A stretch of DNA of 64,000 nt. Origin: an uncultured Gammaproteobacteria bacterium (GTDB lineage: Bacteria > Patescibacteriota > Microgenomatia > UBA10105 > UBA927). The stretch spans positions 98,148 to 162,147 of the forward strand of contig CAYMYO010000002.1 of assembly GCA_964394685.1 (NCBI GenBank), read 5' to 3'. Positions 1,713-41,293 of the stretch are shown here, piece after piece. Under the pieces are notes generated by a model. It did not search any database and had not been told where the DNA came from. It was given only the letters and a program-made list of their open reading frames with translations. The translations under genes and the position numbers were made by a program. Each line of letters opens with the position of its first letter. Positions within the stretch are counted from its first letter, which is position 1.

Positions 1713-3848
1713 ATGCAACGAAAACGCCATTATCGGAAACGCGGACCATTCCATTTAAAATTAAAAAAACAAACAGTCTATACCGTTGCCGCTGTTTGGC
1801 TCTGGTTGTTTGCGGCCGCCATCTTTTTGTCTCTTTTTGGTGAAGGAACGGCACTATCACGGCTTCGGGATGCAATCTATACAAAAATCGGGTCACTTCT
1901 GTACCCACTGCCGGTGTATCTTATATCCGTCAGCTTCTTGTTTTTTAAAGTGAAATCAACATTGGGTAAACCCAATATACCACTCGGATTTACATTGCTT
2001 CTTTTTGCTCTTTTGGGACTTACGCAATCAGGAGCATTTGGAGAATTGCTTATGGCAACATCTGCCAATGCCATATCTATAGAAGGAGCATTTTTATTAT
2101 TTATTGGCATATTTATTATCGGTCTCATTGTTGTACTTAATACGTCACTTGATAGTTTTATGAATATCATCCTTATGGGACTACAACGCATATTTGAATG
2201 GGTGGGGGGACTGTTCAAAGAGATGGTGGCACCAAAAAGTAAATTCATTGGTGGAACAAAAGAAATGAAGATTAAAGGTGGAGAATTTTTAGATACAAAA
2301 CCCATGATCAAAGCAAATCCCGTAGTCCCAGTTCGTCCCGCGCCAGTGATACCAAAATCTGAATTTAAAATTACTTCCAATATGGTTCCTCAAGAGCAAA
2401 TGATATGGGAATATCCGCCGCTTACCCTTTTGTCGGATGGCCCAGGAGAACGGGCAGACCGGGGAGATGTGAAGAAAAATGCCGATATCATTAAAAGTAC
2501 ACTGGATAGTTTTGGCATTATGGCTAATGTTGTTGAGGTAAATAAAGGACCGGCAATAACAGAGTATGCGCTTGAAATTGCTCTTGGGACAAAAGTATCC
2601 AAAATTCAGTCATTATCCAGTGATTTAGCACTTGCTCTTTCAGCGCCCACTGGTGCGGTTCGTATTCAAACGCCAATTCCGGGAAGAAATCTTGTTGGTA
2701 TTGAAATACCAAATCGCGGACTTGAGTTTGTCACACTCAAACGCATGTTGGAATCGCAAGTTTTGGCGAAGGCAAAAAGTAAACTATGTGTAGCACTGGG
2801 CCTTGATGTGTCTGGAAACCCCGTGATGGTTGATATCGGGAAAATGCCGCACATGCTCATTGCCGGTACCACAGGGAGCGGGAAATCCGTTCTTGTGAAT
2901 GCTTTTATCACGTCACTTTTATTTCGAACCACTCCTCAAGAAGTGAAACTTATCCTTATTGATCCAAAACGTGTTGAGCTTACCGGATATAACGGCATTC
3001 CGCATTTGCTGGCTCCTGTTATTGTTGATGCCGATAAAGCATTAAGCGCGCTTCACTACGCGGTCAAAGAAATGGAAATACGCTATAAGCAGCTTGCGGA
3101 AGTCGGGGTAAAAAATATTGATGGATTTAATGAACTTGCCGGCATTCAAACCATGCCGTATATCGTTATCTTTATCGATGAACTTGCTACCCTTATGGCG
3201 TTTGCTCCCGTTGATGCTGAGGATACGATTTGCCGGATTGCTCAGATGTCCAGAGCTGTTGGAATTCATTTGGTGTTAGCGACACAGCGGCCGAGTGTTG
3301 ACGTTATTACGGGACTTATCAAAGCAAATATTCCATCTCGTGTCGCTTTTAATGTGTCATCCATGATTGATTCACGAGTGGTCATTGATATGCCGGGAGC
3401 TGAAAAACTACTTGGTCGTGGAGACATGTTATTTGTTCCTCCTGATCAAAGTAAACCGACGCGTATTCAAGGAACATTTGTATCAGAACAGGAAGTCAAC
3501 AAGGTAGTAGAGTTTCTAAAGTCAAAAAATACTCCTGTTCAATATACTGATGAAGTAGTCAATACTCCTGTGTCGGTTCTTCATAGAGGTGGTTCTATGG
3601 CAACGATGAGTGCGGACGGGAAAGATCAACTGTTTGACGAAGCCCTCAGACTTATTTGTCAGCATGATAAAGCTTCAGCGTCACTTTTACAACGCAGGCT
3701 GTCCGTCGGATATGCCAGGGCCGCTCGCATTCTTGATCAACTTGAATCAGAAGGAATAATAGGTCCTGGGGAAGGATCAAAACCACGAGACGTGCTTATA
3801 AAAAATCCTGATGATTATTACGCACAAATTCAACAACCTCAAGAATAA
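1713..3848 (+). CDS. ftsK: DNA translocase FtsK/SpoIIIE
   Basis: N-terminal TM helices, Walker A GTTGSGKSV, LVLATQRPSVDVITG, and a C-terminal gamma/winged-helix domain LLQRRLSVGYARAARILDQLE. Confidence 0.9.
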   Translation: MQRKRHYRKRGPFHLKLKKQTVYTVAAVWLWLFAAAIFLSLFGEGTALSRLRDAIYTKIGSLLYPLPVYLISVSFLFFKVKSTLGKPNIPLGFTLLLFALLGLTQSGAFGELLMATSANAISIEGAFLLFIGIFIIGLIVVLNTSLDSFMNIILMGLQRIFEWVGGLFKEMVAPKSKFIGGTKEMKIKGGEFLDTKPMIKANPVVPVRPAPVIPKSEFKITSNMVPQEQMIWEYPPLTLLSDGPGERADRGDVKKNADIIKSTLDSFGIMANVVEVNKGPAITEYALEIALGTKVSKIQSLSSDLALALSAPTGAVRIQTPIPGRNLVGIEIPNRGLEFVTLKRMLESQVLAKAKSKLCVALGLDVSGNPVMVDIGKMPHMLIAGTTGSGKSVLVNAFITSLLFRTTPQEVKLILIDPKRVELTGYNGIPHLLAPVIVDADKALSALHYAVKEMEIRYKQLAEVGVKNIDGFNELAGIQTMPYIVIFIDELATLMAFAPVDAEDTICRIAQMSRAVGIHLVLATQRPSVDVITGLIKANIPSRVAFNVSSMIDSRVVIDMPGAEKLLGRGDMLFVPPDQSKPTRIQGTFVSEQEVNKVVEFLKSKNTPVQYTDEVVNTPVSVLHRGGSMATMSADGKDQLFDEALRLICQHDKASASLLQRRLSVGYARAARILDQLESEGIIGPGEGSKPRDVLIKNPDDYYAQIQQPQE

Positions 3849-3854
3849 GCTCCT

Positions 3855-4490
3855 ATGAAAACAGTTGGCAGTATTCTCAAAGAAGCGCGACTAGCTAAAA
3901 ATCTTACCCTTATTGACGTAGAAAAAGTAACGAAAATCCGCGAGAAATTTTTAGACGCGATTGAACAGGATGCATATCAACTGCTTCCATCTCCAATTTA
4001 TGCAAAAGGATTTGTCAAAAATTATGGAGAGTATTTGGGGCTCGACAGCACCCGTGTGATGGCGTTTTTTCGAAGACAGACCGTTGATATAAAACGCTCA
4101 AGTTTACTTCCAAATAAATCAGAAGATATTGGGTCAAAAGGATTACGTATCACTCCCGGCAGGTTTATTGCTCTTATTGTCGGTGCGTTTATATTAGTAT
4201 TTTTAGTGTATTTTGGATTTCAATATCAAAAATTGTATATGCCGCCAACGCTTGCCATTACTACTCCCATACAAGAATCGATAGTAAAAGAAAAAAAATT
4301 AGATATTTTGGGGACAACCAATCCGGATGCAACAGTTATGGTCAATGGAGTAAGTGTGACTGTCCGTTCCGACGGACGGTTTTTTACACAGATAACGGTT
4401 GAACCCGGAGTCAACACGATAACCATTCTTGCAACATCTCGGTATGGAAAAACAACCATGATTACTCGAAAAGTGGGATTACAACAATAA
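3855..4490 (+). CDS. RodZ-like helix-turn-helix membrane protein
   Basis: An N-terminal XRE-type HTH (ILKEARLAKNLTLIDVEKVTKI) is followed by one TM helix and a C-terminal beta-rich domain, as in RodZ/DUF4115 proteins. Confidence 0.6.
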   Translation: MKTVGSILKEARLAKNLTLIDVEKVTKIREKFLDAIEQDAYQLLPSPIYAKGFVKNYGEYLGLDSTRVMAFFRRQTVDIKRSSLLPNKSEDIGSKGLRITPGRFIALIVGAFILVFLVYFGFQYQKLYMPPTLAITTPIQESIVKEKKLDILGTTNPDATVMVNGVSVTVRSDGRFFTQITVEPGVNTITILATSRYGKTTMITRKVGLQQ

Positions 4491-6177: not shown

Positions 6178-6491
6178 TTGATTTCTTTTTTCATCCACGC
6201 GAGATATTTTTTGGAGACATGAGTGAGAGGGATAGCTAGAATTCCAGGAGTATCGTATGAGTGAATTTTTGATACGGTTTTTTCTATTTCTTCCCATTTT
6301 TCATCAAAGGTTTTTGCAAAAAGTACAATTTCATTGGCGTCTTCGATATGTTTATGCCAGAAATACAAAGAATGAACAGGATTTGTGAGGATATTTACAC
6401 AGGCGACCAATCGTTTTTTGAGAAGCATTCTGCTTATATCTTCCGCTTCTTGTTTATCTTTACAATCAATGAAAACGAGAATTGGGTTCAT
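6174..6491 (-). CDS. cutA: divalent-cation tolerance protein CutA
   Basis: 105 aa with VACVNILTNPVHSLYFW and a ...YDTPGILAIP C-terminus typical of CutA1. Confidence 0.7.
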   Translation of the reverse strand: MNPILVFIDCKDKQEAEDISRMLLKKRLVACVNILTNPVHSLYFWHKHIEDANEIVLFAKTFDEKWEEIEKTVSKIHSYDTPGILAIPLTHVSKKYLAWMKKEIN

Positions 6492-6826
6492 AATATGATT
6501 TTATGTTGTTTTGGGTTAAACTTAGGTGAGGTTACCATAAAAATAGATAGATTTCCATTCCATGCAAACTGTTCGTGATGTTGTATATAAAGTGTGTCGC
6601 CAGAAATGATGGAATGTTTTTCTTTCGGTAATTCTATTTCTCCTGATCCACTAACAACATAAGCAATTTCATCCGAGATTTTATTCATTGCAAATCCCTG
6701 TTCCGGATACCTTCCTTTGATTTCGGCAATAGCTCCATTCATGAGTTTTATATCCATAGGATATTCATGAATGTTTGTAGTTAGAGAAGAATAATTAGTT
6801 GTTTCTGATTTTTTGACAAGTTTCAT
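6488..6826 (-). CDS. cupin domain protein
   Basis: 112 aa; the EIAYVVSGSGEIEL...GDTLYI pattern matches a cupin beta-barrel. It overlaps cutA by 4 nt, consistent with an operon. Confidence 0.5.
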   Translation of the reverse strand: MKLVKKSETTNYSSLTTNIHEYPMDIKLMNGAIAEIKGRYPEQGFAMNKISDEIAYVVSGSGEIELPKEKHSIISGDTLYIQHHEQFAWNGNLSIFMVTSPKFNPKQHKIIL

Positions 6827-6828
6827 AA

Positions 6829-7668
6829 TTATCGATAAAGAAAAAATATTCCTGCGATGCCAATAATAACACCGAGAATTTTTTGAAATAATTGTAAATT
6901 TTCTCCGAGTAGCAAAATTCCAAATATTACTGGAGTGACATAGGAGAGACTTTTATACATAGGTAGTGTTTGAGAGACGTTGGTTTGTTGAAGAACAATA
7001 AGAAATATTAGCCATGAGCCAACCGCGAGGAACGCATTCAACATAATAATTATCGGGTATTTGTGGAATATTGTTTTCATTTCCATCCATGTCGACCGTT
7101 TTCTTCCGAAAAGAAGAAAAATGAGAAACGAATTAATGAATGTATAAGTATACGGAGAAAAATCATCGAGAATAATTTTGTCTAAGTATCCCGCAATTCC
7201 GCTTGTTGTAGCCATAAGAAGCGCAAACCACATACCAGTGGTGACAGAAAATCGTTTCTTGTTATATGCAAGCAACATTCCGCTTCCCACAATAAGGAAT
7301 AATCCAAAATATCGAAGAGGTGTGTAGGATTCACGAAGAAAAAGGATTCCAAGAATAGCACTGATGACCACGCTTATTTTATGAATAATACTTACTACTG
7401 ATGCATCAGTGTTTTGGTATGCTTTGAAACTGAAAAATACACTTAACCCATATACTGTTATAGATATAAAAACAATAAGCCAATATGTTGGAGAAAGGGA
7501 AATATGCGGACGGATGAAAAGAAGAGGAAAAGCAATAACAGAAGCTGCAAGCATTTGAAGGGCAGTATAAGATGCGGCTGAGTATTTTACATCAGTGATT
7601 TTTTTATTAAGAAGATAGGTAAACCCTATTGCGATGCTAGCAAGTATCAGAAGAACTTGATGTGACAT
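6829..7668 (-). CDS. EamA/DMT-family transporter
   Basis: About 10 predicted TM helices in two EamA-like halves. Confidence 0.6.
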   Translation of the reverse strand: MSHQVLLILASIAIGFTYLLNKKITDVKYSAASYTALQMLAASVIAFPLLFIRPHISLSPTYWLIVFISITVYGLSVFFSFKAYQNTDASVVSIIHKISVVISAILGILFLRESYTPLRYFGLFLIVGSGMLLAYNKKRFSVTTGMWFALLMATTSGIAGYLDKIILDDFSPYTYTFINSFLIFLLFGRKRSTWMEMKTIFHKYPIIIMLNAFLAVGSWLIFLIVLQQTNVSQTLPMYKSLSYVTPVIFGILLLGENLQLFQKILGVIIGIAGIFFLYR

Positions 7669-11684: not shown

Positions 11685-13821
11685 AAAACCTCGGAAGGAA
11701 CTGTATCTTTCGATTGCGCTTTGCCATTTCCATATCGGAGCATGCGCGTGGTCAATGGATGCTGATGGAGTGCTCCTTGTTGCAGCTTCTGAAAGTAAAA
11801 AACTTGGAGTGTATAGCTGGGAAAATCGTATTGAAATTGCAGACGAGCTCATTGAAAAATTATCTGAATATGCAGGAACTGATGCTATTCACCAAGTAGT
11901 CTTTGGATTGTCTCAAGATATGCTGACTGCGTCAGGAGATATTGAAAAAGGAGTAAAACTTGAGTTGAAAAAGATGTCAACCATGTTGGATTTATCTCCT
12001 GTTGGATTTGTGAATATTGATACAGCAGTGGTATTTCAGATAAAACATGATGAAGGAGTGCCTCCGAGCGTCATTCTTTTACATGTGCAAGGGGATGAAA
12101 TGACTATGTCTCTGTATCGCGTTGGAATCTGTGTTGGGACGCGAACCATTCAAAAAACTGAATTTATTGTTGAAGATGTTGAGACCGCAATCAAAAGCTT
12201 TTCTGACGTTGAAGTGCTCCCCTCCCGGATACTTCTTTTCGGAGATGATACAAATGTTTTGGAAACCATACAATCGCAACTGTTAACACATCAATGGCCA
12301 AACCGAGTAAATTTTCTTCACTATCCAAAAATTGATGTTATGCCTGTGGAAGACGTTGCCCGTGCAGTGGCTCTCGCTGGAGCAAGCGAATTAGCTTCCG
12401 CAATGGGCATTGATACTGAAGAACAAGAAACAACTGTTGTAGCGCAACCAGAAGAAAAGCTTGTCGCTGAAGAAAAACCATCTTCGGAAGATAAAGATAT
12501 TGTTGAGGAAATTGATGATGCATTTGGTAAGGACATAGATAAAGAGAAGTTAGAAGAAATTGAAATTAGTCCTGAAGATGCAAATGTGGTTTCGGTATCA
12601 CCAGAAGTATTAGGGTTTGGGAAAAAACATTTTCAAATGCCTAAAATGCCTAAACTGCCAAAAATACCAATTCACGGAATTACGCTTCCACTTGGAATTA
12701 TCGGAATTCTCATTGTTGTTCTTTTAGGATTTCTTTACTATTTTCTTCCAAAAGCAACTATCACTATCGGTGTACTGCCGCAGGTGATTACCAAGGAAAA
12801 AGCAGTCACTATTTCAACGGTTGCAACAGGAGTAGATGGAGAGAAATTTATTGTTCCGGGGAAAAAACAAGAAAAATCCATATCCGGAGAAAAAACTATG
12901 CCGGTCACCGGAAAGAAAAAAATCGGCGACCCCGCTCGCGGAACAGTCACAGTATATAACCACGATGAGACTAATCCCCTTGTTTTAAAAAGAGGCACAG
13001 TGTTTATTAGTAATTCGTTAGAATTTACTTTAGATAGTGATGTAACGATTCCCTCCGCAAGTGTTTCTGGATTAACGCTTGGTGGCAAGACGACAACATT
13101 TGGAAAACGTTCTGCTGTACTGACAGCATCAAATATTGGAACAGATAGTAATTTGCCAATTGATCAAAAATTTACTGTTAAGAATATGTCTACAGAAGAT
13201 GTTACTGCATCAAATGCGCAGGCATTTACTGGAGGAACGAGCAGACAAGCAACTGTTGTATCACGGGCTGATTATGATGCGCTCATCAAGGCACTCACCG
13301 ATGAGCTGGTTGTCAAAGCAAAAGAAGAACTTTCCCAAGGAGTGATAGGAGGAGAAAAATTAATTGAGCAGACAATCAAAACAACGGTGACAAGTAAAAC
13401 ATTTACAGAAGAATTGGATCAGGAAGCAAAAGAGTTGCATGGTAAGGCAACTATAACCGTAAGTGGAACTTCGTATAAAGAGGAGGATATTCAATTACTT
13501 TTGTTAACGCTCGCTTCTAAAGATATTCAATCAGGATATATCGCAAATGAAGGAAGAACGACCATAACAGTGACAAGTCCAATAGTGAAAAAAGACGGAA
13601 CTATTGCCGCTCAAGCTTCAATTCGATTGGTATCTATTCCAAAAATTGATGTTGAGAAGGTACGAAAATCACTGGTAGGAAAATCATTTATGAGTGCTCA
13701 AGCACTCTTAAAACAAATTCAGGGAGTGGGAAGCGCTGAGTTTGTATTTAAACGATCACTTGGGAATAAACTTCCGTTAAAAGCAACGAATATCACCATT
13801 GACGTTGTCATAGTCCAGTAA
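11644..13821 (+). CDS. hypothetical bitopic membrane protein. It has a ~340 aa cytoplasmic domain that may be actin-like (FtsA/PilM-like), a single TM, and a ~360 aa extracytoplasmic T/S/K-rich domain.
   Basis: One TM helix, ITLPLGIIGILIVVLLGFLYYFL. The N-terminal region has an alternating hydrophobic pattern reminiscent of the actin-fold N-terminus, which is only a weak inference. It overlaps the alaS 3' end by 41 nt. Confidence 0.45.
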   Translation: MNLPEPLQQLFRPKKPRKELYLSIALCHFHIGACAWSMDADGVLLVAASESKKLGVYSWENRIEIADELIEKLSEYAGTDAIHQVVFGLSQDMLTASGDIEKGVKLELKKMSTMLDLSPVGFVNIDTAVVFQIKHDEGVPPSVILLHVQGDEMTMSLYRVGICVGTRTIQKTEFIVEDVETAIKSFSDVEVLPSRILLFGDDTNVLETIQSQLLTHQWPNRVNFLHYPKIDVMPVEDVARAVALAGASELASAMGIDTEEQETTVVAQPEEKLVAEEKPSSEDKDIVEEIDDAFGKDIDKEKLEEIEISPEDANVVSVSPEVLGFGKKHFQMPKMPKLPKIPIHGITLPLGIIGILIVVLLGFLYYFLPKATITIGVLPQVITKEKAVTISTVATGVDGEKFIVPGKKQEKSISGEKTMPVTGKKKIGDPARGTVTVYNHDETNPLVLKRGTVFISNSLEFTLDSDVTIPSASVSGLTLGGKTTTFGKRSAVLTASNIGTDSNLPIDQKFTVKNMSTEDVTASNAQAFTGGTSRQATVVSRADYDALIKALTDELVVKAKEELSQGVIGGEKLIEQTIKTTVTSKTFTEELDQEAKELHGKATITVSGTSYKEEDIQLLLLTLASKDIQSGYIANEGRTTITVTSPIVKKDGTIAAQASIRLVSIPKIDVEKVRKSLVGKSFMSAQALLKQIQGVGSAEFVFKRSLGNKLPLKATNITIDVVIVQ

Positions 13822-33125: not shown

Positions 33126-33593
33126 ATGAACGGAAATAAGACAGTTATAGCAATATTACTGTCTGCACTCATGATCTGCGCGACCATTTATTATGTTGGG
33201 AAAAAGCCGGACAAAATTCCGACAGTTATCGTTCCGGAAAGCAATCAGTCGCAAACAGCAATTGCGACGCCAACCGCGGAAATACCAACACTAACAATAG
33301 ATGATCTTGCGCTTATTACCAAAGCAATAGCTCTCAAAACCGGTCTTTCTGAAACGGCAATCAACGTGACCATTTCAAAACACATTGGCGACTACGCAAA
33401 AGGCGGGATAGTAGAAAAGACAAGTGAAGTTGGCGGAGCCCAGTGGTTTGCGGCAAAGAAAAACGGCGCATGGGTTATTGTGCATGATGGGCAGGATTAT
33501 CCGAAATGCAGTGTACTTGTTGGATTTACATTTCCAAAAGAAATATTGGATAGTTGTTGGGACGATGCGACAAACAAGTTAAAAAGTTTGTGA
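33126..33593 (+). CDS. membrane-anchored hypothetical protein
   Basis: An N-terminal TM helix followed by a soluble domain; no recognisable motif. Confidence 0.4.
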   Translation: MNGNKTVIAILLSALMICATIYYVGKKPDKIPTVIVPESNQSQTAIATPTAEIPTLTIDDLALITKAIALKTGLSETAINVTISKHIGDYAKGGIVEKTSEVGGAQWFAAKKNGAWVIVHDGQDYPKCSVLVGFTFPKEILDSCWDDATNKLKSL

Positions 33594-34552
33594 TCAAACG
33601 ATACATAGGCATTTGTATACTTCTTTTTGGAATAGGACTTTATTTTTATTTTTTTCAAAAAGATCAAACGGTGTCACTCTCTCCGATAGTAGAACAATCA
33701 ACATGGACGCTGATAGCTACAGGTGATATTATTCCCGCCCGGTCAGTGAATTACAAAACACTTACGTATAAAGATTTTACCTGGGCGTGGAAGAATATTG
33801 CGCCAATAATAAAAGTTGGTGATATCACGGTTATTAATTTAGAATCTCCGCTTATAGATAATTGTCCAATAACCAACGAAGGCTTCAAATTTTGCGGAGA
33901 CAGCCGTCACATCGAAGGACTGGTTCATGCCGGCGTTGATGTGGCGACACTTGCCAATAACCACATTGGAAATTATGGAAAAAGTGGAATTGATGAAACA
34001 GTACAGCTGCTTCGATCCCATGGTATTGATGTTGCTGGGATTAATGAGGAACCGCCGATATGGGTTGTTAACAACATTCGTGTTGGATTTCTTGCATATA
34101 ACGATATTGGCGCAAAAGAAGAAGGAGTGTCGTGGGCGGATACAAATGTTATGGAAAAGGAAATTCAGAAGTTACGGAATAGTGTTGATGTATTGGTGGT
34201 GTCGATGAGTTGGGGAGAAGAATATATGGTTACACCGTCAGCCAGACAAAAAGAATTGGCTCATTTTATTATTGATAGCGGCGCGGATCTGATTTTAGGC
34301 AATCACCCTCACTGGATTCAGCCGGTCGAAGTGTATCAAGGTAAATATATTGTGTACGCGCATGGCAATACCATATTTGATCAAATGTGGAGCGAAGAAA
34401 CAAAAACAGGTGTTATCGGGAAATATACATTTTCAGGAATGCGGCTTACAAATGTCGAGTTTATACCAACGTATATCAAAGATTATGGTCAGCCAACGCT
34501 TCTTACCGGCGAGGCAAAAAAAGAAATATTACAGAAAATAATGATACTATAA
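33554..34552 (+). CDS. CapA-family (PGA_cap) metallophosphatase-like protein
   Basis: GDITVINLESP...LANNHIGNYGKSG...GNHPHWIQPVE...YAHGNTIFDQ. The track start is a TTG; the true start is uncertain. Confidence 0.75.
   Translation: MLGRCDKQVKKFVIKRYIGICILLFGIGLYFYFFQKDQTVSLSPIVEQSTWTLIATGDIIPARSVNYKTLTYKDFTWAWKNIAPIIKVGDITVINLESPLIDNCPITNEGFKFCGDSRHIEGLVHAGVDVATLANNHIGNYGKSGIDETVQLLRSHGIDVAGINEEPPIWVVNNIRVGFLAYNDIGAKEEGVSWADTNVMEKEIQKLRNSVDVLVVSMSWGEEYMVTPSARQKELAHFIIDSGADLILGNHPHWIQPVEVYQGKYIVYAHGNTIFDQMWSEETKTGVIGKYTFSGMRLTNVEFIPTYIKDYGQPTLLTGEAKKEILQKIMIL
34457..34552 (+). repeat. direct repeat copy A, the in-frame capA 3' end
   Basis: About 75% nt identity to 35954-36049; it encodes EFIPTYIKDYGQPTLLTGEAKKEILQKIMIL*. 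Confidence 0.6.
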
Positions 34553-34582
34553 ATGTATGAGGAAAATTATAACTCTAAATTT

Positions 34583-34606
34583 AATGTTATAGAATTCAAT
34601 AACATT
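34583..34606. repeat. 24-bp palindromic site, copy 1 (AATGTTATAGAATTCAATAACATT)
   Basis: 8-bp arms around a GAATTC core. It lies inside a ~57-bp segment that duplicates an internal part of the KilA-N gene. Confidence 0.6.
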
Positions 34607-34730
34607 AGAAAAGAAGCAGGATTTAATATTTAAACACATCGAATTCGACGGGTTTAAAAATAAACCAACATGTAATTTAATTATGGCGAATTTGCCATAA
34701 TAAAAAAGAATATAAAATAACAAAGTATTT

Positions 34731-35558
34731 ATGAGAAAAATCACAGCTCAAGGCTTTGATATTGCCATTATTCGCAAAGATAATGAGGAATATATTTCTT
34801 TGACCGACATGGCAAAGTTTAAAGATCGTGAAGCAACAGGTATTGTAATTTCTAATTGGTTATCCACGAAATACACGATCCAGTTTGCTGGAGCTTGGGA
34901 ACAAGTTCATAACCCTATGTTTAATGTTATGGAATTCCATAACATTAGAAATGAAGCTGGATCTCATGGATTTATTTTATCCTCTTCAAAATGGATACAA
35001 AAAACAAACGCAATAGGGATACGGTCATCTTCTGGTCGATATGGCGGTACTTTTGCTCACAAAGATATTGCTTTCGAGTTTGCAACATGGATTTCGCCAG
35101 AATTCAAACTCTATCTTATTAAAGAATTCCAGCGGTTAAAAGAAGAAGAAAATAAACGATTGGTTCTCGGATGGGATCTCAAACGTCAGCTTACCAAAAT
35201 TAATTATAGAATTCATACAGACGCAATTAAAGATAATTTACTCCCGAAAACTGTAACAAAGAAACAAGCACAGATAACTTATGCAACCGAGGCAGATATA
35301 TTGAATATCGCACTGTTTAGCAAAACCGCCAAAGACTGGCAAAGTGAAAATAAAAATAAAGAAGGAAATATTCGTGACTATACTGATGTTGTTCAACTTG
35401 TGGTACTCGCTAATCTTGAAAGTATCAACGCAGAATTCATTAAAAAAGGAATTCCTCAATCGGAACGATTAGTTCAACTGAATGCAATTGCCATCTCTCA
35501 AATAAAGTCACTCATCGGCAATCCTTCAATCAAAAAATTAGAACGTGGAAGTAAATAA
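34731..35558 (+). CDS. KilA-N domain protein (phage/plasmid-type)
   Basis: The N-terminal domain FDIAIIRKDNEEYISLTDMAKF...ISNWL...GGTFAHKDIAFEFATWISPEFKLYLIKEF matches the KilA-N consensus (GTxxH.D.A..FA.WiSpeF). Confidence 0.6.
   Translation: MRKITAQGFDIAIIRKDNEEYISLTDMAKFKDREATGIVISNWLSTKYTIQFAGAWEQVHNPMFNVMEFHNIRNEAGSHGFILSSSKWIQKTNAIGIRSSSGRYGGTFAHKDIAFEFATWISPEFKLYLIKEFQRLKEEENKRLVLGWDLKRQLTKINYRIHTDAIKDNLLPKTVTKKQAQITYATEADILNIALFSKTAKDWQSENKNKEGNIRDYTDVVQLVVLANLESINAEFIKKGIPQSERLVQLNAIAISQIKSLIGNPSIKKLERGSK
34923..34946. repeat. 24-bp perfect palindrome, copy 2 (AATGTTATGGAATTCCATAACATT), inside the KilA-N coding sequence
   Basis: Its reverse complement is identical to itself; it encodes FNVMEFHNI. 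Confidence 0.6.
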
Positions 35559-35559
35559 A

Positions 35560-35955
35560 ATGATTAAGAAAAAGCCAGTTTATTCAATCAGCGATAGATT
35601 GTGGGGTGAGGACGGACCCTATTCGGAAGTGAAATTGATTATTGAGACACGGATTTTAGACGAGAGGATAAGCAGGACATTTGTCATCGTTGAAGTATCA
35701 ATAAATCCATATACATTTGAATTAATACGGAAGCATAAGACTTTATTTTATAGTGATAAAATGATCCAGCAATTATTAGAACATTCTGAATATCGAGGGC
35801 AAAGTGATGGATATGTTTCTATGGCATTTTCTGAGGAATATGGACCAGATGTGCTAGAAAAGGCCCAGCAATCAGTCGAATATTGTAAGAATACAATTGT
35901 CAAAATGCACCAATTTGTAATGAAACAATTGAATAATAAAAAAAATATAAATTAA
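35560..35955 (+). CDS. hypothetical protein (element cargo)
   Basis: The ATG at 35560 lies immediately after the KilA-N stop and has a GGAAG Shine-Dalgarno. No recognisable domain. Confidence 0.35.
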   Translation: MIKKKPVYSISDRLWGEDGPYSEVKLIIETRILDERISRTFVIVEVSINPYTFELIRKHKTLFYSDKMIQQLLEHSEYRGQSDGYVSMAFSEEYGPDVLEKAQQSVEYCKNTIVKMHQFVMKQLNNKKNIN

Positions 35956-36049
35956 ATTTATCCCAACCTATATTCAAGACTACGGTCAACCAACCCTTCT
36001 TACCGGCGACGCAAAAGAAAAAGTATTACAAAAGCTAAGTGTAAATTAA
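35954..36049 (+). repeat. direct repeat copy B, the orphan capA 3' end
   Basis: See copy A. It is out of frame with the upstream ORF and ends in TAA at 36047-36049. Confidence 0.6.
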
Positions 36050-36101
36050 TATGTTTACGTTATTATTCACCCATTCTGCCTGCATTAAAAAAAATGTTTT
36101 A

Positions 36102-36758
36102 TTATATTACCTTAGTGGAGTGAACACCTTTTTTGGCGAGGAGATATTTTACAGAAGTATTTTGTTTGTTCAATGAATCTATTACTTTAGAAATTAACTT
36201 TTTTGGATCAGGTCCAAAATGGACTATTGCATTAGTTTTTTTAGGCACTTTTGTGATTAATGTTTTTAAATCGTCTGTGATCCCTCCAGTTTCAGTTAAA
36301 ACGCCAATAATTTTTCCCATCTCATATAGATTAATGAATTCATTTAACGTGCCCCATCTGCCGGAAATAATTATTGCCGCATCACAGTTGGCTGTTGAGA
36401 TAACATTTCTGTAGCATAGCCGCGCAAACTGTTCACATTTGAACTGATTGTTATTCCTTATAAAAAAGAGTTTCTTATAATACGCTGGGACATAAAATAA
36501 TTTGGTAAATATAGAAGGATTATTTTCCGGAAAAAACATTTTATGGTGTTGAAAATCAATTTCAGGAGTAAAACCCCAAATATCTACACCCTTTTTCGAG
36601 GCTTCATTGGCAACCATATAAGGTAATCCCGTGCTCCCGCCGGTTATCAGGATTAAATTTTTACGTTTTCCAAATTCTATTCCTAATTTTTTTGCAAGAA
36701 CTAAAGCTTTTTTGTTATTTTCTACCGCAGATCCAAAAACTCCAATTTTGTATATCAT
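36102..36758 (-). CDS. LOG-family (TIGR00725-like) Rossmann-fold nucleotide-binding protein
   Basis: LILITGGSTGLPYMVANEA (GGxxGxM) and AIIISGRWGTLNEFINLYE (PGGxGTxxE-like), the two LOG signature motifs. Confidence 0.65.
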   Translation of the reverse strand: MIYKIGVFGSAVENNKKALVLAKKLGIEFGKRKNLILITGGSTGLPYMVANEASKKGVDIWGFTPEIDFQHHKMFFPENNPSIFTKLFYVPAYYKKLFFIRNNNQFKCEQFARLCYRNVISTANCDAAIIISGRWGTLNEFINLYEMGKIIGVLTETGGITDDLKTLITKVPKKTNAIVHFGPDPKKLISKVIDSLNKQNTSVKYLLAKKGVHSTKVI

Positions 36759-36794
36759 AAGTTTTTAGACTATATTCTTAAAATAATTATATAC

Positions 36795-38357
36795 TTATTG
36801 CCACTCTATCGTTGCCGGAGGTTTGTCTGTTATATCGTACACGACTCTCCCAACTCCCACTTCGTCAACTATTCTTTTGGAGATTGTTTTAAGGTACGGA
36901 AGTGCCTTTAAGGAAAAATTTGCCGTCATAGAATTTATTGATTCGACTACCCTTACTACAATTGCCTTATTATATTTTTGATGTTCATCTCCTTTGATTC
37001 CAAGACTGGGGACATTGATAAGTATTGCAAATGACATCCATATATCGTTTTTTACCGGGCTATTTTGCAGTGTTTCCTCTATTATTTTAGTAGCTTTTCT
37101 TACAAGTTCTACTTTGCTTCTCGTTACCTCTCCCTGTACTCTTATTGCAAAACCGGGACCTGGAAAAACCTTTTTAAATACTGCTTCATCTGGCAAATTC
37201 AAGAAATTAGCTACCAGCCTCACTTTGTCTTTAAATAAATCCCTAAGGGGTTCTAATAATTCTACATTTAAATGATTTGGTAAGCCGCCAACATTGTGAT
37301 GAGGTTTTATTTGAGATGAAAATTTTGTTACGCCACTTTCTACAACGTCAGACCAAATAGTTCCCTGGGCTACAATTTTTGTGTTGTATTTTTTAGCTAT
37401 TTCTTCGAATATTTCAATGAATGTCTTGCCAATTATTTTGCATTTTTTATCGGGTTTAATTTCTGATTTTAGCGCATTGAAAAATCTATCGCTTTCGTTA
37501 ACGACTTCAAGTTTTATATCAAATTTACGACAAAATAATACAACTTCACTTTGAGTTTCTTTTGGCATTAAACCACTATCAACATAAATTGCAATTATTT
37601 GACTTTTTCTTAAAGCTTTTTTTAATAAAGCTGTCATTGTTAGTGAATCAACTCCACCTGATACAGCGACTATAACTTTGCTTTCCCTCACGCGAGATTT
37701 AATTGACAGTATTGCCTGATCAACGAAAATTTTAGGTGTCCATTTCAATTTCTTTTTGATTTTACAAATTTTGAAGGAAAAATTTGAGAGGATTATATCT
37801 CCCTGTATAGTATGAGAAACTTCGGGGTGAAATTGCACACCGAATAGATTAGAGCCTATTTTTTTATACGCGGTAATAGGTGTGTATTCACTTGATGCTA
37901 ATATTTCGTATCCTTTGGGCAATTGCATTACGGTGTCTCCGTGACTCATCCAAACAATAGAATTATTTGTAACTCCATCGAATAAAGCATTTTTATGGAT
38001 TATTGAAATTTGCGAACTACCATACTCTGATTTTTCTTTTTTTACTTGTCCACCTTTTATTTTGGCTAATAATTGATGGCCATAACAAATTCCCAATACC
38101 GGAGTTCCACTTTCTAGCCATGTTTGATCAAATAGTATGGAGTTCGTTTTAACAGAAGCTGCGCTTCCGGACAATATTAATCCTTTAACTTGAAAATTAT
38201 TATTTTCTATATTTGTTATCCAATCTTTATGACAAATATCAGCCGGCACGATGACTGAATACGCACCAACATCCTGAAGCCTAGATTTAATTAAATGCGT
38301 GTATTGGCTGCCAAAGTCGAATATTAAAATTATCTCTTTTTTTGATACCATGTTCAT
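36795..38357 (-). CDS. guaA: GMP synthase (glutamine-hydrolysing): GATase-1 plus a PP-loop ATP pyrophosphatase
   Basis: A GATase with catalytic Cys (GICYGHQLL), the PP-loop VAVSGGVDSL, and a C-terminal HHNVGGLP dimerisation motif. Confidence 0.85.
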   Translation of the reverse strand: MNMVSKKEIILIFDFGSQYTHLIKSRLQDVGAYSVIVPADICHKDWITNIENNNFQVKGLILSGSAASVKTNSILFDQTWLESGTPVLGICYGHQLLAKIKGGQVKKEKSEYGSSQISIIHKNALFDGVTNNSIVWMSHGDTVMQLPKGYEILASSEYTPITAYKKIGSNLFGVQFHPEVSHTIQGDIILSNFSFKICKIKKKLKWTPKIFVDQAILSIKSRVRESKVIVAVSGGVDSLTMTALLKKALRKSQIIAIYVDSGLMPKETQSEVVLFCRKFDIKLEVVNESDRFFNALKSEIKPDKKCKIIGKTFIEIFEEIAKKYNTKIVAQGTIWSDVVESGVTKFSSQIKPHHNVGGLPNHLNVELLEPLRDLFKDKVRLVANFLNLPDEAVFKKVFPGPGFAIRVQGEVTRSKVELVRKATKIIEETLQNSPVKNDIWMSFAILINVPSLGIKGDEHQKYNKAIVVRVVESINSMTANFSLKALPYLKTISKRIVDEVGVGRVVYDITDKPPATIEWQ

Positions 38358-38367
38358 AGTTATTTAG

Positions 38368-39003
38368 TCAACGTTTTATGGATTTAAAGACAAACCCCTT
38401 TTTTTGTTGCGAAATAAATTCTTTCAAAAAATTAATGTCTTTTGCAGACAGGATTTTTTCGTCAAAAGCGACTTTTAACAAATTATTAATATTTGTAATC
38501 GAACACACATCTACTGATAATCTTTCTTTAATAAAATCATCATGACCATAGCTAAAAATAGCATGTACATATATTTGATAACCCAAGCGTTTTAATTCAT
38601 ATATTGCCGGTTGAATTGTAGCTCCGGACACAATGACATCATCTATGATTACAACTTTATTTCGTCCTGTCGGAATTTGTCCAACAAACCTTCCTTTTTC
38701 GGCATATTCTTTATCACTTTTCCGATATAATACCAGCGGAATATTTAACTTATCAGCAAGTATTGAAGCAAAATATGATCCGCCGCTTTCAATGCCACAA
38801 ACGAGGTCAGTATGAGGGGGTATGATACTCAATAAATCATCAGTAATTATTTTCCTTAGTTTAATGTTATTTAATGTATTTTTAATATTGATAAAAATCG
38901 GGGTCATCCTGTTAGGTTGTACTTCAAAAAATATTTTAGGGCTGTACTTTAATACGCCGGGAGAAGTAACCAATAATCTTTCAAGTTCAAAATTAGAGTT
39001 CAT
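38368..39003 (-). CDS. type I phosphoribosyltransferase, orotate PRTase-like
   Basis: PRPP-binding loop VVIIDDVIVSGATI. The overall layout (GxLKYSPKIFF, GIESGGSYFAS) resembles PyrE. Confidence 0.6.
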   Translation of the reverse strand: MNSNFELERLLVTSPGVLKYSPKIFFEVQPNRMTPIFINIKNTLNNIKLRKIITDDLLSIIPPHTDLVCGIESGGSYFASILADKLNIPLVLYRKSDKEYAEKGRFVGQIPTGRNKVVIIDDVIVSGATIQPAIYELKRLGYQIYVHAIFSYGHDDFIKERLSVDVCSITNINNLLKVAFDEKILSAKDINFLKEFISQQKKGFVFKSIKR

Positions 39004-39165
39004 AGATATACTTATTTATCGAATCGTTTCGCAAAATTTAAGGAATTTATTATTGCATCCTTTTATTCAAGTTAAAGCTGATTATAGCATTATAATAATC
39101 TGTAATGATAGTTTGTATTCTTTATACCGTACCTGTTATATATGAGTTTCTGGTATAATTGTTTC

Positions 39166-39717
39166 ATGCTATATATTTTGGGGGGAGCATCAAGATCAGG
39201 AAAATCCATAATTGCCCGTAGATTTGTTTCGGAAAAGCAAATACCTTTTTTTTGCTTAGACGTTTTAATTACCTCTTTGCAAGAGATCCCATCCCTAGAC
39301 ATTAAACATGGGCAACCTATTATAAGCAAATCAGAAAAGCTGTGGCCGGTAGTTAAACCACTACTTACTCATTTATTTAGGGAGGAACTAAATTATTTGA
39401 TTGAAGGTGATGGGATACTTCCAAGCAAGATAGCCGAATTAATAAAGGATTTTTCAAATGAAATTAAAGCATGTTTTGTCGGCTTTTCTGAGATAAGTCT
39501 TCAAGACAAATTCAAGAAAATAAAAGAATTTGGAGAGAACAAAGATGACTGGACAAAAAGAGTTTCTGATGAAAAATTAATGTCAAACATTGAGGATATG
39601 ATTATGTTTAGTAAGTATCTTAAATCTGAGTGTAATAAATATAACATTCGTTATTTTGATTCATCTGATAATTTTTGTGAATATCTTGAAAACGTATTTC
39701 AGTATTTAACAAAATAA
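39166..39717 (+). CDS. P-loop kinase, chloramphenicol-phosphotransferase (CPT)-like fold
   Basis: Walker A ILGGASRSGKS, similar to the CPT-family GxSSxGKS. The ATG at 39166 is preferred over the track start. Confidence 0.45.
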   Translation: MLYILGGASRSGKSIIARRFVSEKQIPFFCLDVLITSLQEIPSLDIKHGQPIISKSEKLWPVVKPLLTHLFREELNYLIEGDGILPSKIAELIKDFSNEIKACFVGFSEISLQDKFKKIKEFGENKDDWTKRVSDEKLMSNIEDMIMFSKYLKSECNKYNIRYFDSSDNFCEYLENVFQYLTK

Positions 39718-39730
39718 GTTTGAATCTCCT

Positions 39731-41293
39731 CTACCGCTCCGTCATTATATATTTTAAGGCCGTCTTGTTGTTGGGTTCACAGATCAGAGCATTTTCAAAA
39801 CAATGAATGGCAGTATTATAAAAACGTTGGTTTAGAAATTTTTCTCCCTGAGTGATATGATTTTGTATTGGTTGTTTGTACCAAAACGTAAGCAGGGAAG
39901 ATTTTGGATTTTCAACGGCAAATTTTGATAATGTTTTGTGGGCTAATTGATACTGATGGTTAGCAGCTTGAGCTATTGCTATATTAATAGCAACTTCAGG
40001 AATGGTGGATGCTGCCTGTTTGAAGTTGTCTATAGCTTCAGTATATTTATGTAATCCCAATAGAGCTTTTCCCCGTTTCAATGTTAAATCTGCATTCCTG
40101 TGTGTTGTGTTTTTTGAAAGTATGTTCAGAGATTCGGTGAATTTCCCTAACGCAAGTAACACGTCAATGTGATGATATCTCGGCTTGCTGTCATTCGTAT
40201 TACGTTTTTTTGTATGAATAGGTGTGGGGTTTTGTGTATAATATTCGATAATTCGTTTCTTTGCATGGGTCAGCTGGTTCGGGTAATTATTTATCTGACC
40301 TGATTTAAGAAGTGTATAAAAAAGTTGTCGGTTTTGTTTGTATTCAAGATGCTTATTTTCAGTTCTTGCGGGGTGGCTTATGTGTAAACCGGAAGCCGCA
40401 TAGACAGGTACAACAAAGTTTCCTACCGAAATTGCTTTAGCCGCTAGATGACCATCCTCACATCCCCACCCACAAAACCGCTCATCATACCCGCCGATTT
40501 CATAGTATGTAGATTTCGGCAAGCTGAAAAGTGCTCCAATAACGAGATCAGATAGAAGCCATGGATCATAGTTATTACGCATCCAGAGGCCGTGCAAATG
40601 GCCCAAATTTTTAAAATGGTTACTTGTCAGGCACATGTTGTCTGGAAATCCAGGAGAGGGGAAAGCTATTCTTTCATCTCTTACAAGAGATGAATATTGA
40701 TGGGACCCATATCGACGAATGTATTTTGGATTTATCAGAAGACTGTTTTTGGATATATTTGAACGAAAACCAGCCAACAATACGTTCGAGAATTGTCGGT
40801 GTCGCTCGATAAAATGCTCAATGGTATAGTGTGACAAAACCATGTCTGCGTCGCAAGAAATAATAATTTCATTTTCAGCAATAGAAATTCCGGTGTTTAG
40901 CGCTTGAGCTCGTCCGTGGTGTTTTTGTTTTATGGCTGTAAGATTTAATGCAAGCGTATTTTTTTTAATAATTTCCCATGTCCCGTCATCGGATCCGTCA
41001 TCTACCACGAGAACTTGCAGTCTATTTTGATGCTCTACATTAAAACTACTTTGTTCAATCGATGTTAAGCAGGAAAGTATAGATGATGCAGCATTTCTTG
41101 CTGGAATAACTACGGTTGCTGTTATTTTTTTAGCAGAAGTTGATTTTGCCGGTGGCGAAAAAGGATCCAGCAGGTCTAATTTATTAACCTTAAAGTATTT
41201 TTCCTCAATTTGGGAATAGTCGTTGCTTTTTTTCTCAAGAGCTTTTTTTTGATTCATTGTATGTTGGTTTTTGCAAAACCCATATAACAGCAA
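39731..41293 (-). CDS. family-2 glycosyltransferase fused to C-terminal TPR repeats
   Basis: A GT2 domain (VVIPARNAASSI...LQVLVVDDGSDDGT...ISCDADMV) followed by TPR-like repeats. The start may be the internal Met at 41257. Confidence 0.7.
   Translation of the reverse strand: MLLYGFCKNQHTMNQKKALEKKSNDYSQIEEKYFKVNKLDLLDPFSPPAKSTSAKKITATVVIPARNAASSILSCLTSIEQSSFNVEHQNRLQVLVVDDGSDDGTWEIIKKNTLALNLTAIKQKHHGRAQALNTGISIAENEIIISCDADMVLSHYTIEHFIERHRQFSNVLLAGFRSNISKNSLLINPKYIRRYGSHQYSSLVRDERIAFPSPGFPDNMCLTSNHFKNLGHLHGLWMRNNYDPWLLSDLVIGALFSLPKSTYYEIGGYDERFCGWGCEDGHLAAKAISVGNFVVPVYAASGLHISHPARTENKHLEYKQNRQLFYTLLKSGQINNYPNQLTHAKKRIIEYYTQNPTPIHTKKRNTNDSKPRYHHIDVLLALGKFTESLNILSKNTTHRNADLTLKRGKALLGLHKYTEAIDNFKQAASTIPEVAINIAIAQAANHQYQLAHKTLSKFAVENPKSSLLTFWYKQPIQNHITQGEKFLNQRFYNTAIHCFENALICEPNNKTALKYIMTER

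Follow-up and report, generated by a model that had tools for sequence, protein, structure and literature searches.

The question raised by this locus is what a palindrome with a GAATTC core is doing both upstream of a KilA-N gene and within its coding sequence. The locus lies in a stretch of 64,000 nt (the window; all coordinates are positions within it) of contig CAYMYO010000002.1, from an uncultured bacterium placed in the Patescibacteriota. A reading made earlier from the letters alone (the sequence-only reading) had described two such 24-bp palindromes, one upstream of the gene and one inside it, within repeats of about 85% identity some 340 bp apart, and had taken them for operator or recombination sites. 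Both are indeed present, namely copy 1 (AATGTTATAGAATTCAATAACATT, 34583-34606) with 11 of its 12 pairs, and copy 2 (AATGTTATGGAATTCCATAACATT, 34923-34946), which is a perfect palindrome. The direct repeat that encloses them (34569-34627 and 34909-34967) is 59 nt long with 85% identity and an offset of 340 nt. Copy 1 sits in the 178-nt spacer between a PGA_cap gene and the KilA-N gene, while copy 2 occupies codons 64-71 of the latter. The perfect palindrome of copy 2 spans 26 nt (34922-34947), and its paired element as a whole is longer than the 24 nt first noted, with about 13-16 nt per arm (Table 1). There are also two further GAATTY-centred palindromes in the spacer, TTTAAACACATCGAATTCGACGGGTTTAAA and TTTAATTATGGCGAATTTGCCATAATAAAA. 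The three upstream units have their centres at 34594, 34643 and 34690, a spacing of 49 and 47 nt.

Chance can be excluded as the origin of these elements, as the sequence-only reading had held, since 100 shuffles give an expectation of 0 matches to the motif with three or fewer mismatches and 64 kb of sequence should contain only 0.006 perfect 12-pair palindromes by chance. Of spacer-less palindromes in which 11 or more of 13 positions pair, the window has eight where shuffles give 1.15, and four of the eight are at the KilA-N locus. The other four (at 13699, 27081, 28182, and 48893, each with 11 of 13 pairs) are unrelated in sequence to the KilA-N units. No further copy of the KilA-N palindrome was found elsewhere in the 64-kb window, and within it the motif is not the genome-wide repeat that had been considered as a contrary possibility. 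That the palindromes are cis-elements tied to the KilA-N gene is borne out by the comparisons that follow.

Copy 2 is the window gene's own instance of an ancient stem-loop carried within the coding sequences of KilA-N, RhuM and Bro-N/DinD-like genes, and the alignments show that selection has acted on its base pairing and not on a recognition sequence in duplex DNA. A genome scan found 590 relatives of the gene among 600 candidate stretches, from which 80 loci with 55-75% identity were kept. Sites were located by means of tblastn anchors and placed in an ungapped alignment of 48 columns with a 16-pair helix. A palindrome is present at the homologous position, which encodes the peptide F-[NK]-x-x-E-F-x-x-[IF]-[KR], in all 80 distinct homologues, and a hairpin about 200 nt after the start codon is present in each of the 134 related KilA-N genes examined. 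The palindrome also occurs in homologues from Gram-positive phages, satellites and E. coli. The GAATTC centre and the flanks TTTTAA/TTAAAA are kept and seven base pairs per arm covary, the arm sequences themselves differing between homologues (for example AAACCCGTCGAATTCGACGGGTTT, AATGTTACGGAATTCCGTAACATT, AATTATGGCGAATTTGCCATAATT, and AAACTGGTCGAATTCGACCAGTTT). Over the 80 homologues, 95.2% of cells are paired against 78.9% in shuffles (none of 500 shuffles reaches the observed value), double-change cells number 219 against 63, and seven pairs have changed on both sides. When the partner is slid by 1-3 columns as a control, paired cells do not exceed 61.5%. Because the sequences are related, the shuffle statistics overstate independence, and the slid controls together with tests on synonymous sites are the stronger evidence.

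These latter tests concern the encoded protein. The amino acids of the two arms follow the pairing as reverse-complement codon pairs, these being Pro/Gly, Val/Asp, Ile/Asp, Leu/Glu, Thr/Arg, Met/His, and Leu/Gln, and synonymous codons track their partners, with 28 cases of GTC (Val) opposite GAC (Asp) and 20 of ATC (Ile) opposite GAT (Asp) against three discordant ones (p = 6e-11). The central Glu-Phe is encoded as GAATTC in 72 of 76 genes and never with GAG, whereas at three other conserved Glu-Phe sites the figure is 17-33%. Flank codons are similarly fixed, with Lys as AAA in 86 cases against four and Arg as AGA in 26 of 28. The arms fall into 54 classes among the 134 genes and the nearest relative is of the same class for only 58 of them, proteins of 97-98% identity carrying different arms. 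Between two genes with 2.8% divergence (L037 and L038; handles of this form denote the compared loci), the palindrome differs solely by a mirrored G>C and C>G.

The same element appears in other gene families. A second KilA-N family found in phages, with proteins of about 190 residues, has TTTAA-N7-GAATTC-N7-TTAAA at the equivalent position but in the +1 frame, so that the peptide is L-[NK]-x-x-N-S-x-x-L-[KN]. Pairing over its 33 distinct sequences reaches 97.4% (85.5% in shuffles), seven pairs covary, and slid controls give 62% or less. Distant members of this family (L312, L330, L324, and L260) keep the palindrome with other centres, namely CATATG, AGATCT, and GCAAATGC, so that the centre sequence itself is non-essential over long distances. 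RhuM and Bro-N/DinD-like genes have a stem of 10-12 bp at the same distance of about 200 nt from the start codon, closed by a non-palindromic 5-nt loop that is nearly all A/T (AAAAT, AAATT, TTTTT, GAATT, and others) and that may be rich in either A or T on the sense strand, with no bias towards one of them. All ten pairs covary among 50 distinct RhuM sequences, with 95.6% paired against 64.1%, a covariation score of 0.92 against 0.29 and slid controls no higher than 42.6%. In 64 of 69 RhuM genes the hairpin at nt 180-240 is the strongest of the whole gene. The Bro-N hairpin is present in 14 of 16 genes. In all four families the centre or loop consists almost exclusively of A and T. By eye, the peptides encoded around the hairpin seem alignable (RhuM TTEEFSVVQKEGNRE, KilA-N NVMEFHNIRNEAGSH, DinD ETTKMVVLGSGAQRE), which suggests that the hairpin may be an inherited feature across KilA-N, RhuM and DinD. 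E. coli dinD itself has a weakened form of the Bro-N hairpin, ACCACC-AAAAT-GGTTGT, with seven of ten pairs and one G.T (loop at L244 6265-6269, nt 196-200 of the gene), and would provide a tractable model gene for the hairpin.

Selection on pairing and not on sequence is argued for by four observations together: arms that differ yet stay complementary, synonymous codons that follow their partner, the use of another reading frame in the second family and the non-palindromic loops of RhuM and Bro-N. As the arms stay complementary, the centre is A/T-rich and the sequence, together with the amino acids, drifts by compensatory change, the selected object is a hairpin in single-stranded nucleic acid, which would be a cruciform in supercoiled DNA. 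It is well established that template switching can mutate imperfect palindromes towards perfect ones, and a palindrome without function might perpetuate itself through such intramolecular switching during replication (quasi-palindrome correction), with selection on the protein filtering the arm pairs. Such a process would yield mirrored double changes like that between L037 and L038 and would give synonymous sites with non-synonymous partners an appearance of conservation; coding palindromes do exist elsewhere (PMC6649704). It is nevertheless a very improbable explanation here, given that non-coding copies should pair at least as well as coding ones, yet they pair worse (a mode of five of the seven variable pairs against seven of seven), that the hairpin has never been lost in 134 KilA-N and 69 RhuM genes across two reading frames and across bacteria, archaea and phages, and that neither the A/T-only centre nor the constant position is predicted by it.

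The upstream units appear to be something different from the copy within the gene. Copy 1 and the two further units are non-coding stubs of that stem-loop, and their arms are typical of three other allele classes. In unit 1 (copy 1), positions 55-88 of the family hidden Markov model (HMM) match at 34535-34636, so that similarity to coding sequence extends beyond the palindrome, and its closest counterpart is the in-gene site of L001 (NVMEFNN type), with 30 of 32 and 41 of 48 positions identical. An in-frame stop interrupts the unit. At each of the nine positions that distinguish it from copy 2 the stub has A or T, the outcome expected when non-coding DNA of high A/T content decays. Unit 2 is identical at 29 of 32 positions (median 23) to the in-gene sites of L167, L137, and L047, of the KPVEFDGFK class, and unit 3 at 30 of 32 (median 19) to that of L055, of the NYGEFAII or 'YG' class. 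Copy 1 had been presented as the partner site of copy 2; it is instead one of three degenerate units that resemble three allele classes. A YG unit is also present upstream of the KilA-N genes of L016, L069, L076, L083, and L126. Similar stubs within 140 nt upstream of the start codon were found in eight of 81 genomic loci (the window included) as well as in L083 and the viral L126, an upstream enrichment of 12-fold (p = 3e-5), these frequencies resting on about 135 loci. L069 and L076 have two upstream units each and L017 and L033 one each, while about 90% of loci have none. No units with TTTAA flanks were found downstream of KilA-N genes among the loci scanned.

Nine differences of this kind invite comparison with the template and variable repeats of a diversity-generating retroelement, in which case copies 1 and 2 would be such a pair; seven of the nine do have A upstream and another base in the gene. 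In the other two T becomes C, the repeat measures just 59 nt, there is no reverse transcriptase among the seven neighbouring genes (31.5-36.8 kb), and the target would be an internal, otherwise conserved segment with stubs of other classes alongside. The likelihood of this explanation is negligible, and membership in this group of elements was rejected on the absence of a reverse transcriptase nearby and on the two differences that are not at A.

The stubs also bear on the idea of duplex operators, bound by a KilA-N dimer that autoregulates its own gene, which was one half of the proposal in the sequence-only reading. KilA-N is a DNA-binding domain in Pfam and relatives of the protein are annotated by PHROG as transcriptional regulators, the GAATTC centre and the TTTAA/TTAAA flanks are conserved and symmetric, three units lie in the promoter-proximal spacer, and the baculovirus hr palindromes with an EcoRI core are bound by dimeric IE1 (PMC2834656). 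An operator is expected to have a half-site conserved among orthologues, and it is at this point that the proposal fails: the seven positions per arm vary freely as long as they remain complementary, giving the many arm classes and the near-identical proteins with different arms described above, and covarying arms are not something that a duplex-binding dimer requires. Moreover, the upstream units are of other classes than the gene's own site and most loci have no such unit, while the loops of RhuM and Bro-N are not palindromic and the distant second-family genes have centres other than GAATTC. Paired operators are thus decidedly improbable, and this part of the earlier proposal does not stand.

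Alternatively, the upstream units could be functional in their own right. Comparable to the repeat array of a type III toxin-antitoxin system, they would form hairpins in the leader that serve as decoy or antidote RNA, or else offer a toxic KilA-N protein several sites to bind. Three units with 47-49-nt spacing do lie directly upstream of a 'kil'-type candidate defence gene, all three still fold as RNA (-6.4 to -10 kcal/mol), and similar arrays recur in other loci and phages. The folds are however weaker than that of the in-gene copy, the sequence is not the same from unit to unit, and such units occur at no more than about 10% of loci. Unit 1 has its flanking coding similarity with an in-frame stop, its nine differences towards A/T look like neutral decay, and there is no terminator between the array and the gene (34553-34730). 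A functional array is therefore considered improbable, and membership among toxI-like arrays was rejected because the unit arms differ, no terminator-like site is present in that interval and about 90% of loci lack the array.

Just 3′ of the hairpin there is a cluster of truncations and junctions of KilA-N genes. L016 and L027 have N-terminal KilA-N fragments (HMM positions 3-81 and 4-78 respectively) that end just after the palindrome, the former together with its YG unit. A third fragment, in L064 (HMM positions 51-81), has a hybrid palindrome with a left arm of the YG type and a right arm of the DGF type. In L190 and L203, units abut and have one TTTAA flank in common. A generic scan, which in viruses required both flank and centre boxes and was therefore blind to other variants, identified 43 more palindromic units outside genes of the first family, two-unit arrays among them. 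Such free units are less well paired than in-gene units, as expected for relics. It may be mentioned separately that in L097 a gene for a 267-residue tyrosine integrase (6336-7139) ends 17 bp before a free YG palindrome (7148-7165), an arrangement also seen in L106 and L112. This palindrome could be an att/dif-like site or else the relic of a KilA-N gene formerly next to an integrase.

With regard to mobility, the KilA-N gene appears to move as a bare open reading frame (ORF), judging from the window and its 93%-identical relative L081. In L081 the gene lies between homologues of the 155-aa gene and of PGA_cap, flanked by an 8-bp duplication, TTTGTGAT (604-611 and 1456-1463), with flanking genes that are 81-84% identical to those of the window. 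The window has the corresponding uninterrupted (empty) site at 33587-33594, also TTTGTGAT, with its own KilA-N gene 1.1 kb further on, and homology between the two is limited to 34728-35543, which is essentially the reading frame. An empty site for the window locus itself is not definable, the downstream 131-aa gene being a mobile accessory gene in other contexts. The start of PGA_cap is probably the GTG at 33590, which overlaps the TGA stop of the 155-aa gene (GTGA), and not the listed TTG at 33554; this GTGA junction is kept in L081 after the insertion.

Across 79 loci, target-site duplications flanking the ORF were not above chance, apart from L008, L025, and L023. The flanking repeats around the KilA-N gene are at least 16-17 nt in L008 and L025. 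Imperfect direct repeats of about 100 nt flank the gene in L082 (~2810-2900 and ~3840-3960), and 35-nt ones, with a promoter-like TTGACT..., do so in L083 (~410-445 and ~1420-1455), a pattern that would result if the DNA upstream of the following gene had been duplicated on insertion. One mosaic maps to the palindrome: P0073 and P0108 are about 25% divergent up to its left edge, about 8% over the next 170 nt and 0.5% thereafter. Change points in 82 close proteins were also considered as signs of recombination, but most of them, at residues 138-170, are attributable to a C-terminal domain that evolves faster.

Taken as a whole, the account that we tentatively favour, and to which we would give somewhat less than even prospects, is that the hairpin is a break-and-join point for allele replacement and the stubs are its record. 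A new KilA-N reading frame would be joined to the DNA some tens of bases downstream of an older stem-loop, leaving the latter as a stub, and either the event would be repeated or stubs would be carried over from the donor locus. The hairpin may be a preferred point of DNA breakage and joining through a stalled fork or the processing of a cruciform, or alternatively the substrate of a hairpin-specific recombinase, as on integron attC sites. It would be in this way that one allele of such a single-gene accessory cassette takes the place of another, whether in a restriction-modification operon, in the lysogeny module of a prophage or in a defence island. The option of recombination sites in the sequence-only reading is thereby the part that gains support, from the stubs, the fragments ending at the palindrome, the hybrid arms and the one mosaic.

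A number of observations weigh against allele replacement at the hairpin. The site is inside the gene, where a simple crossover would split it, no 3′ remnants of replaced genes were found in a family HMM search of the loci, and the spacing of 47-49 nt between units needs extra deletions beyond serial insertion into full-length genes. The insertion junctions of L081 are without a palindrome. P0073 and P0108 are the only clear mosaic that maps to the palindrome, with a transition that is not sharp, and comparison of N- and C-terminal identity in 134 divergent genes gave no sharp mosaics. Among the neighbours of 80 loci there is no recombinase consistently adjacent to KilA-N genes, tyrosine integrases being neighbours in only a few cases. 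The fragments of L016 (2983-3249, 88 aa) and L027 (2983-3240, 86 aa) may be working genes and not relics, in that each is an intact ORF with a stop codon overlapping the start that follows (ATGA), and the 76-aa profile of PHROG 32500 corresponds to the same N-terminal 73 residues. A perfect 32-nt YG unit stands alone in about ten unrelated phage intergenic contexts, and for such identical units with no flanking gene remnant simple decay is insufficient as an explanation. Finally, the constant distance from the start codon suits a role in mRNA, and pairs of the G.T type on the sense strand outnumber A.C pairs by 63 to 24 (35 to 24 with one Lys/Arg position excluded), an excess that leans towards a hairpin in RNA or in the sense strand.

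These last two points belong to the explanation that competes most directly, namely that the hairpin functions in mRNA as a cis element in the transcript of a possibly toxic gene or a defence gene, whether as a pause for the ribosome or RNA polymerase, in processing or stability, or in binding of the nascent protein, with stubs and breakpoints as side effects. Covariation is the usual signature of RNA structure, and the in-gene hairpin has a stable RNA fold (-14.8 kcal/mol, z = -5.9). In-gene, and thus expressed, copies are better paired than free ones, the position near 200 nt is the same in four families, and the G.T (G.U) excess is accompanied by the near-fixation of AGA at the flank. The excess comes mostly from one Lys-to-Arg position, however, the loop sequence varies between A-rich and T-rich on the sense strand, and the KilA-N centre and flanks are themselves palindromic. 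A scan with the covariance models of Rfam 15 over the window region and six related loci gave no match at the hairpins, even at E-values of 1-10. A role in mRNA also leaves unexplained the fragments that end at the hairpin, the hybrid arms, the abutting units and the identical free units in phages. By itself this explanation is possible, if somewhat unlikely. As to the selected role, exchange at the DNA level is considered the more likely and a role at the mRNA level nearly as likely, the former being ranked first because the A/T-only centres in four families and the A/T-rich flanks in KilA-N suit strand opening and cruciform extrusion.

A broader form of allele replacement can also be envisaged, in which the hairpin or cruciform is the exchange point, throughout the superfamily, of an unrecognised recombination system that moves and swaps cassettes, as well as N-terminal modules of about 65 residues, from one restriction-modification operon, prophage or defence island to another. 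The domain might then bind the hairpin of its own gene, and free units would be landing pads or scars, perhaps including the hr palindromes near bro genes. This extension is rather unlikely.

Among known systems, the KilA-N hairpin would in its logic be most like the attC sites of integrons, yet none of the defining features compared is shared. As in attC, structure is kept by complementary arms while the sequence is free, conserved short boxes stand at the ends of a variable stem, the cassettes are mobile single genes and arrays are possible. Unlike attC, the hairpin has neither R″/L″/L′/R′ boxes (RYYYAAC/GTTRRRY) nor extrahelical bases, and IntI is not encoded nearby. Its place is inside the ORF (codons 63-73), where that of attC is 3′ of the cassette, and at 26-32 nt it is much shorter. 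Membership was rejected since the ends are TTTTAA/TTAAAA and the centre GAATTC, GTTRRRY occurs in none of 119 distinct sites and no intI or attI was found among the neighbours. The core site of a tyrosine recombinase (dif/att) has inverted arms of 9-13 bp and conserved sequence, an overlap of 6-8 bp that is normally asymmetric, and a cognate recombinase. The arms and 6-bp centre of the KilA-N palindrome would fit this, as would the unit near the integrase in L097 and the hybrid arms of L064, but its arms are not conserved in sequence, its centre is symmetric and most loci are without a recombinase.

Sites within the gene of the acting protein are familiar from the lambda ori iterons in gene O, the phiX174 origin in gene A and the pT181 origin in repC. 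These resemble the KilA-N hairpin as dyad-symmetric cis elements that lie inside coding sequence and are co-inherited with it, but they are replication origins bound by a known initiator. Palindromic elements of Rickettsia lie inside ORFs, and coding palindromes are described in mitochondrial genes of Nematomorpha (PMC6649704). In both, as here, the two arms of an inverted repeat are translated as part of a gene, and the sequence has to accommodate both the protein and the nucleic-acid structure. They are however lineage-specific, long (up to 284 bp, or about 100-150 bp) and found at many positions, unlike the KilA-N-type hairpin, which is short and occupies a single homologous position in four gene families and both prokaryotic domains.

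Repetitive extragenic palindromes (REPs) and the bacterial interspersed mosaic elements (BIMEs) that they form, associated with RAYT transposases (PMC3733652), are likewise short hairpin units (20-40 bp in REP) with covarying stems, single or clustered in intergenic DNA. REPs are extragenic, have a GTAG/CGTC tag and occur in tens to hundreds of copies per genome; membership was rejected as all four copies in the 64 kb are at one locus, there is no tag and the main copy is coding. The hr elements of baculoviruses are tandem 30-bp imperfect palindromes with an EcoRI core (PMC2834656, PMC2830988). They resemble the present units in a length of about 30 bp, the GAATTC centre and the possibility of tandem copies, and the genomes that carry them have many DNA-binding genes of the BRO/KilA type, at loci associated with rearrangements. 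They differ in being intergenic, conserved in sequence within a virus and bound as duplex by dimeric IE1, with roles as enhancers and origins, and their host and repeat-unit context have no counterpart here. They are not known to covary or to have a coding role. The resemblance in size, EcoRI core, tandem arrangement and BRO-type genes is a lead taken from the literature and points to no more than a possible relationship.

The KilA-N protein matches Pfam PF04383 at residues 13-138 (E = 3e-21; 75.7 bits against a cut-off of 23.8) and, over its full length (residues 2-272), PDC-S22 of PADLOC (E = 6.8e-126), a candidate single-gene defence family. Homologues number more than 8000 matches, the best 120 of which have 71-100% identity and are mostly from Candidate Phyla Radiation bacteria, while the 80 loci kept for comparison come from Patescibacteria, Bacteroidota, Proteobacteria, Verrucomicrobiota, spirochaetes and DPANN archaea. 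Structure prediction by AlphaFold2 with 58 homologues gave a poor model (mean pLDDT 57), and a sequence search found no solved structure among the relatives. Homology of the C-terminal domain to E. coli DinD was considered, but pairwise BLAST gave it no support. In E. coli genomes only one distant KilA-N homologue was found, hence there is no presence/absence series. The positions of the gene, its hairpin and the three stubs are given in Table 1.

Table 1. Features identified at the KilA-N locus of the window.
Feature	Position	Strand	Description
KilA-N gene	34731-35558	+	275 aa; PF04383 and PADLOC PDC-S22 matches
In-gene stem-loop (copy 2)	34920-34949	+	Centre between 34934 and 34935; core GAATTC; encodes F-N-V-M-E-F-H-N-I-R; the maintained copy
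Stub unit 1 (copy 1)	34569-34627	+	Probable non-coding relic, codons ~60-79, NVM/NVMEFNN-type allele; palindrome 34582-34607
Stub unit 2, TTTAAACACATCGAATTCGACGGGTTTAAA	34629-34658	+	Probable relic of KPVEFDGFK-type allele; 21-nt inverted-repeat arms, 81% complementary
Stub unit 3, TTTAATTATGGCGAATTTGCCATAATAAAA	34676-34705	+	Probable relic of NYGEFAII ('YG')-type unit; 15-nt inverted-repeat arms, 87% complementary

Across the 80 loci, frequent neighbours are hsdM and hsdS (12 each), RhuM, Bro-N, HsdR and other restriction genes, and genes for reverse transcriptases also occur next to it. In two unrelated genomes a reverse transcriptase gene (RVT_1, 382 aa) is directly upstream of KilA-N (L022 1727-2875 and L039 1597-2769). 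Staphylococcus phage EW and Streptococcus satellite prophages have the KilA-N gene between the repressor module and the integrase, and in Photorhabdus pPAU1 (L243 2995-4444) it lies between a phage tail-fibre gene and a gene for a 204-aa serine recombinase (invertase-like). In the Shapirobacteria-like contigs L250-L252, genes for Fic, PD-(D/E)XK, KilA-N, Bro-N and an NTPase form a tight run on the same strand with overlapping stops and starts, an example of cassette-like packing of KilA-N/Bro-N-type genes. The 131-aa ORF downstream of the window's gene (35560-35955) is usually found in Gottesmanbacteria-like contigs after a PRiA4_ORF3 gene, among RhuM, AbiEii, Bro-N and toxin-antitoxin genes. 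This ORF, the stubs and KilA-N all fall in a region (34000-40000) with a G+C content of 0.32-0.35, compared with about 0.40 elsewhere. Eight of the window's 24 GAATTC sites are located within 863 nt (34592-35454; Poisson p ~2e-9), six of them inside the KilA-N gene, which is the family maximum (median 2), and only the central one is conserved in homologues. This clustering was discounted as a special feature, being accounted for by Glu-Phe dipeptides and A/T-rich codons.

The literature on palindromes, hairpins or inverted repeats in KilA-N and RhuM, and on PDC-S22, yielded no description of the hairpin, and a conserved hairpin common to several very common accessory gene families thus appears to be undescribed. 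For annotation the finding carries a warning, as short upstream 'repeats' such as those found here may be gene relics. It also provides a clear case, over a very wide phylogenetic range, in which nucleic-acid pairing dictates the choice of amino acids (Pro/Gly, Val/Asp, Met/His). Among the genes of unexplained role that travel in type I restriction-modification operons, in prophage lysogeny modules and in defence islands, KilA-N, RhuM and Bro-N/DinD-like genes are some of the commonest. A hairpin conserved at an equivalent position in each of these would offer a concrete handle on their movement and control, open to testing by mutation.

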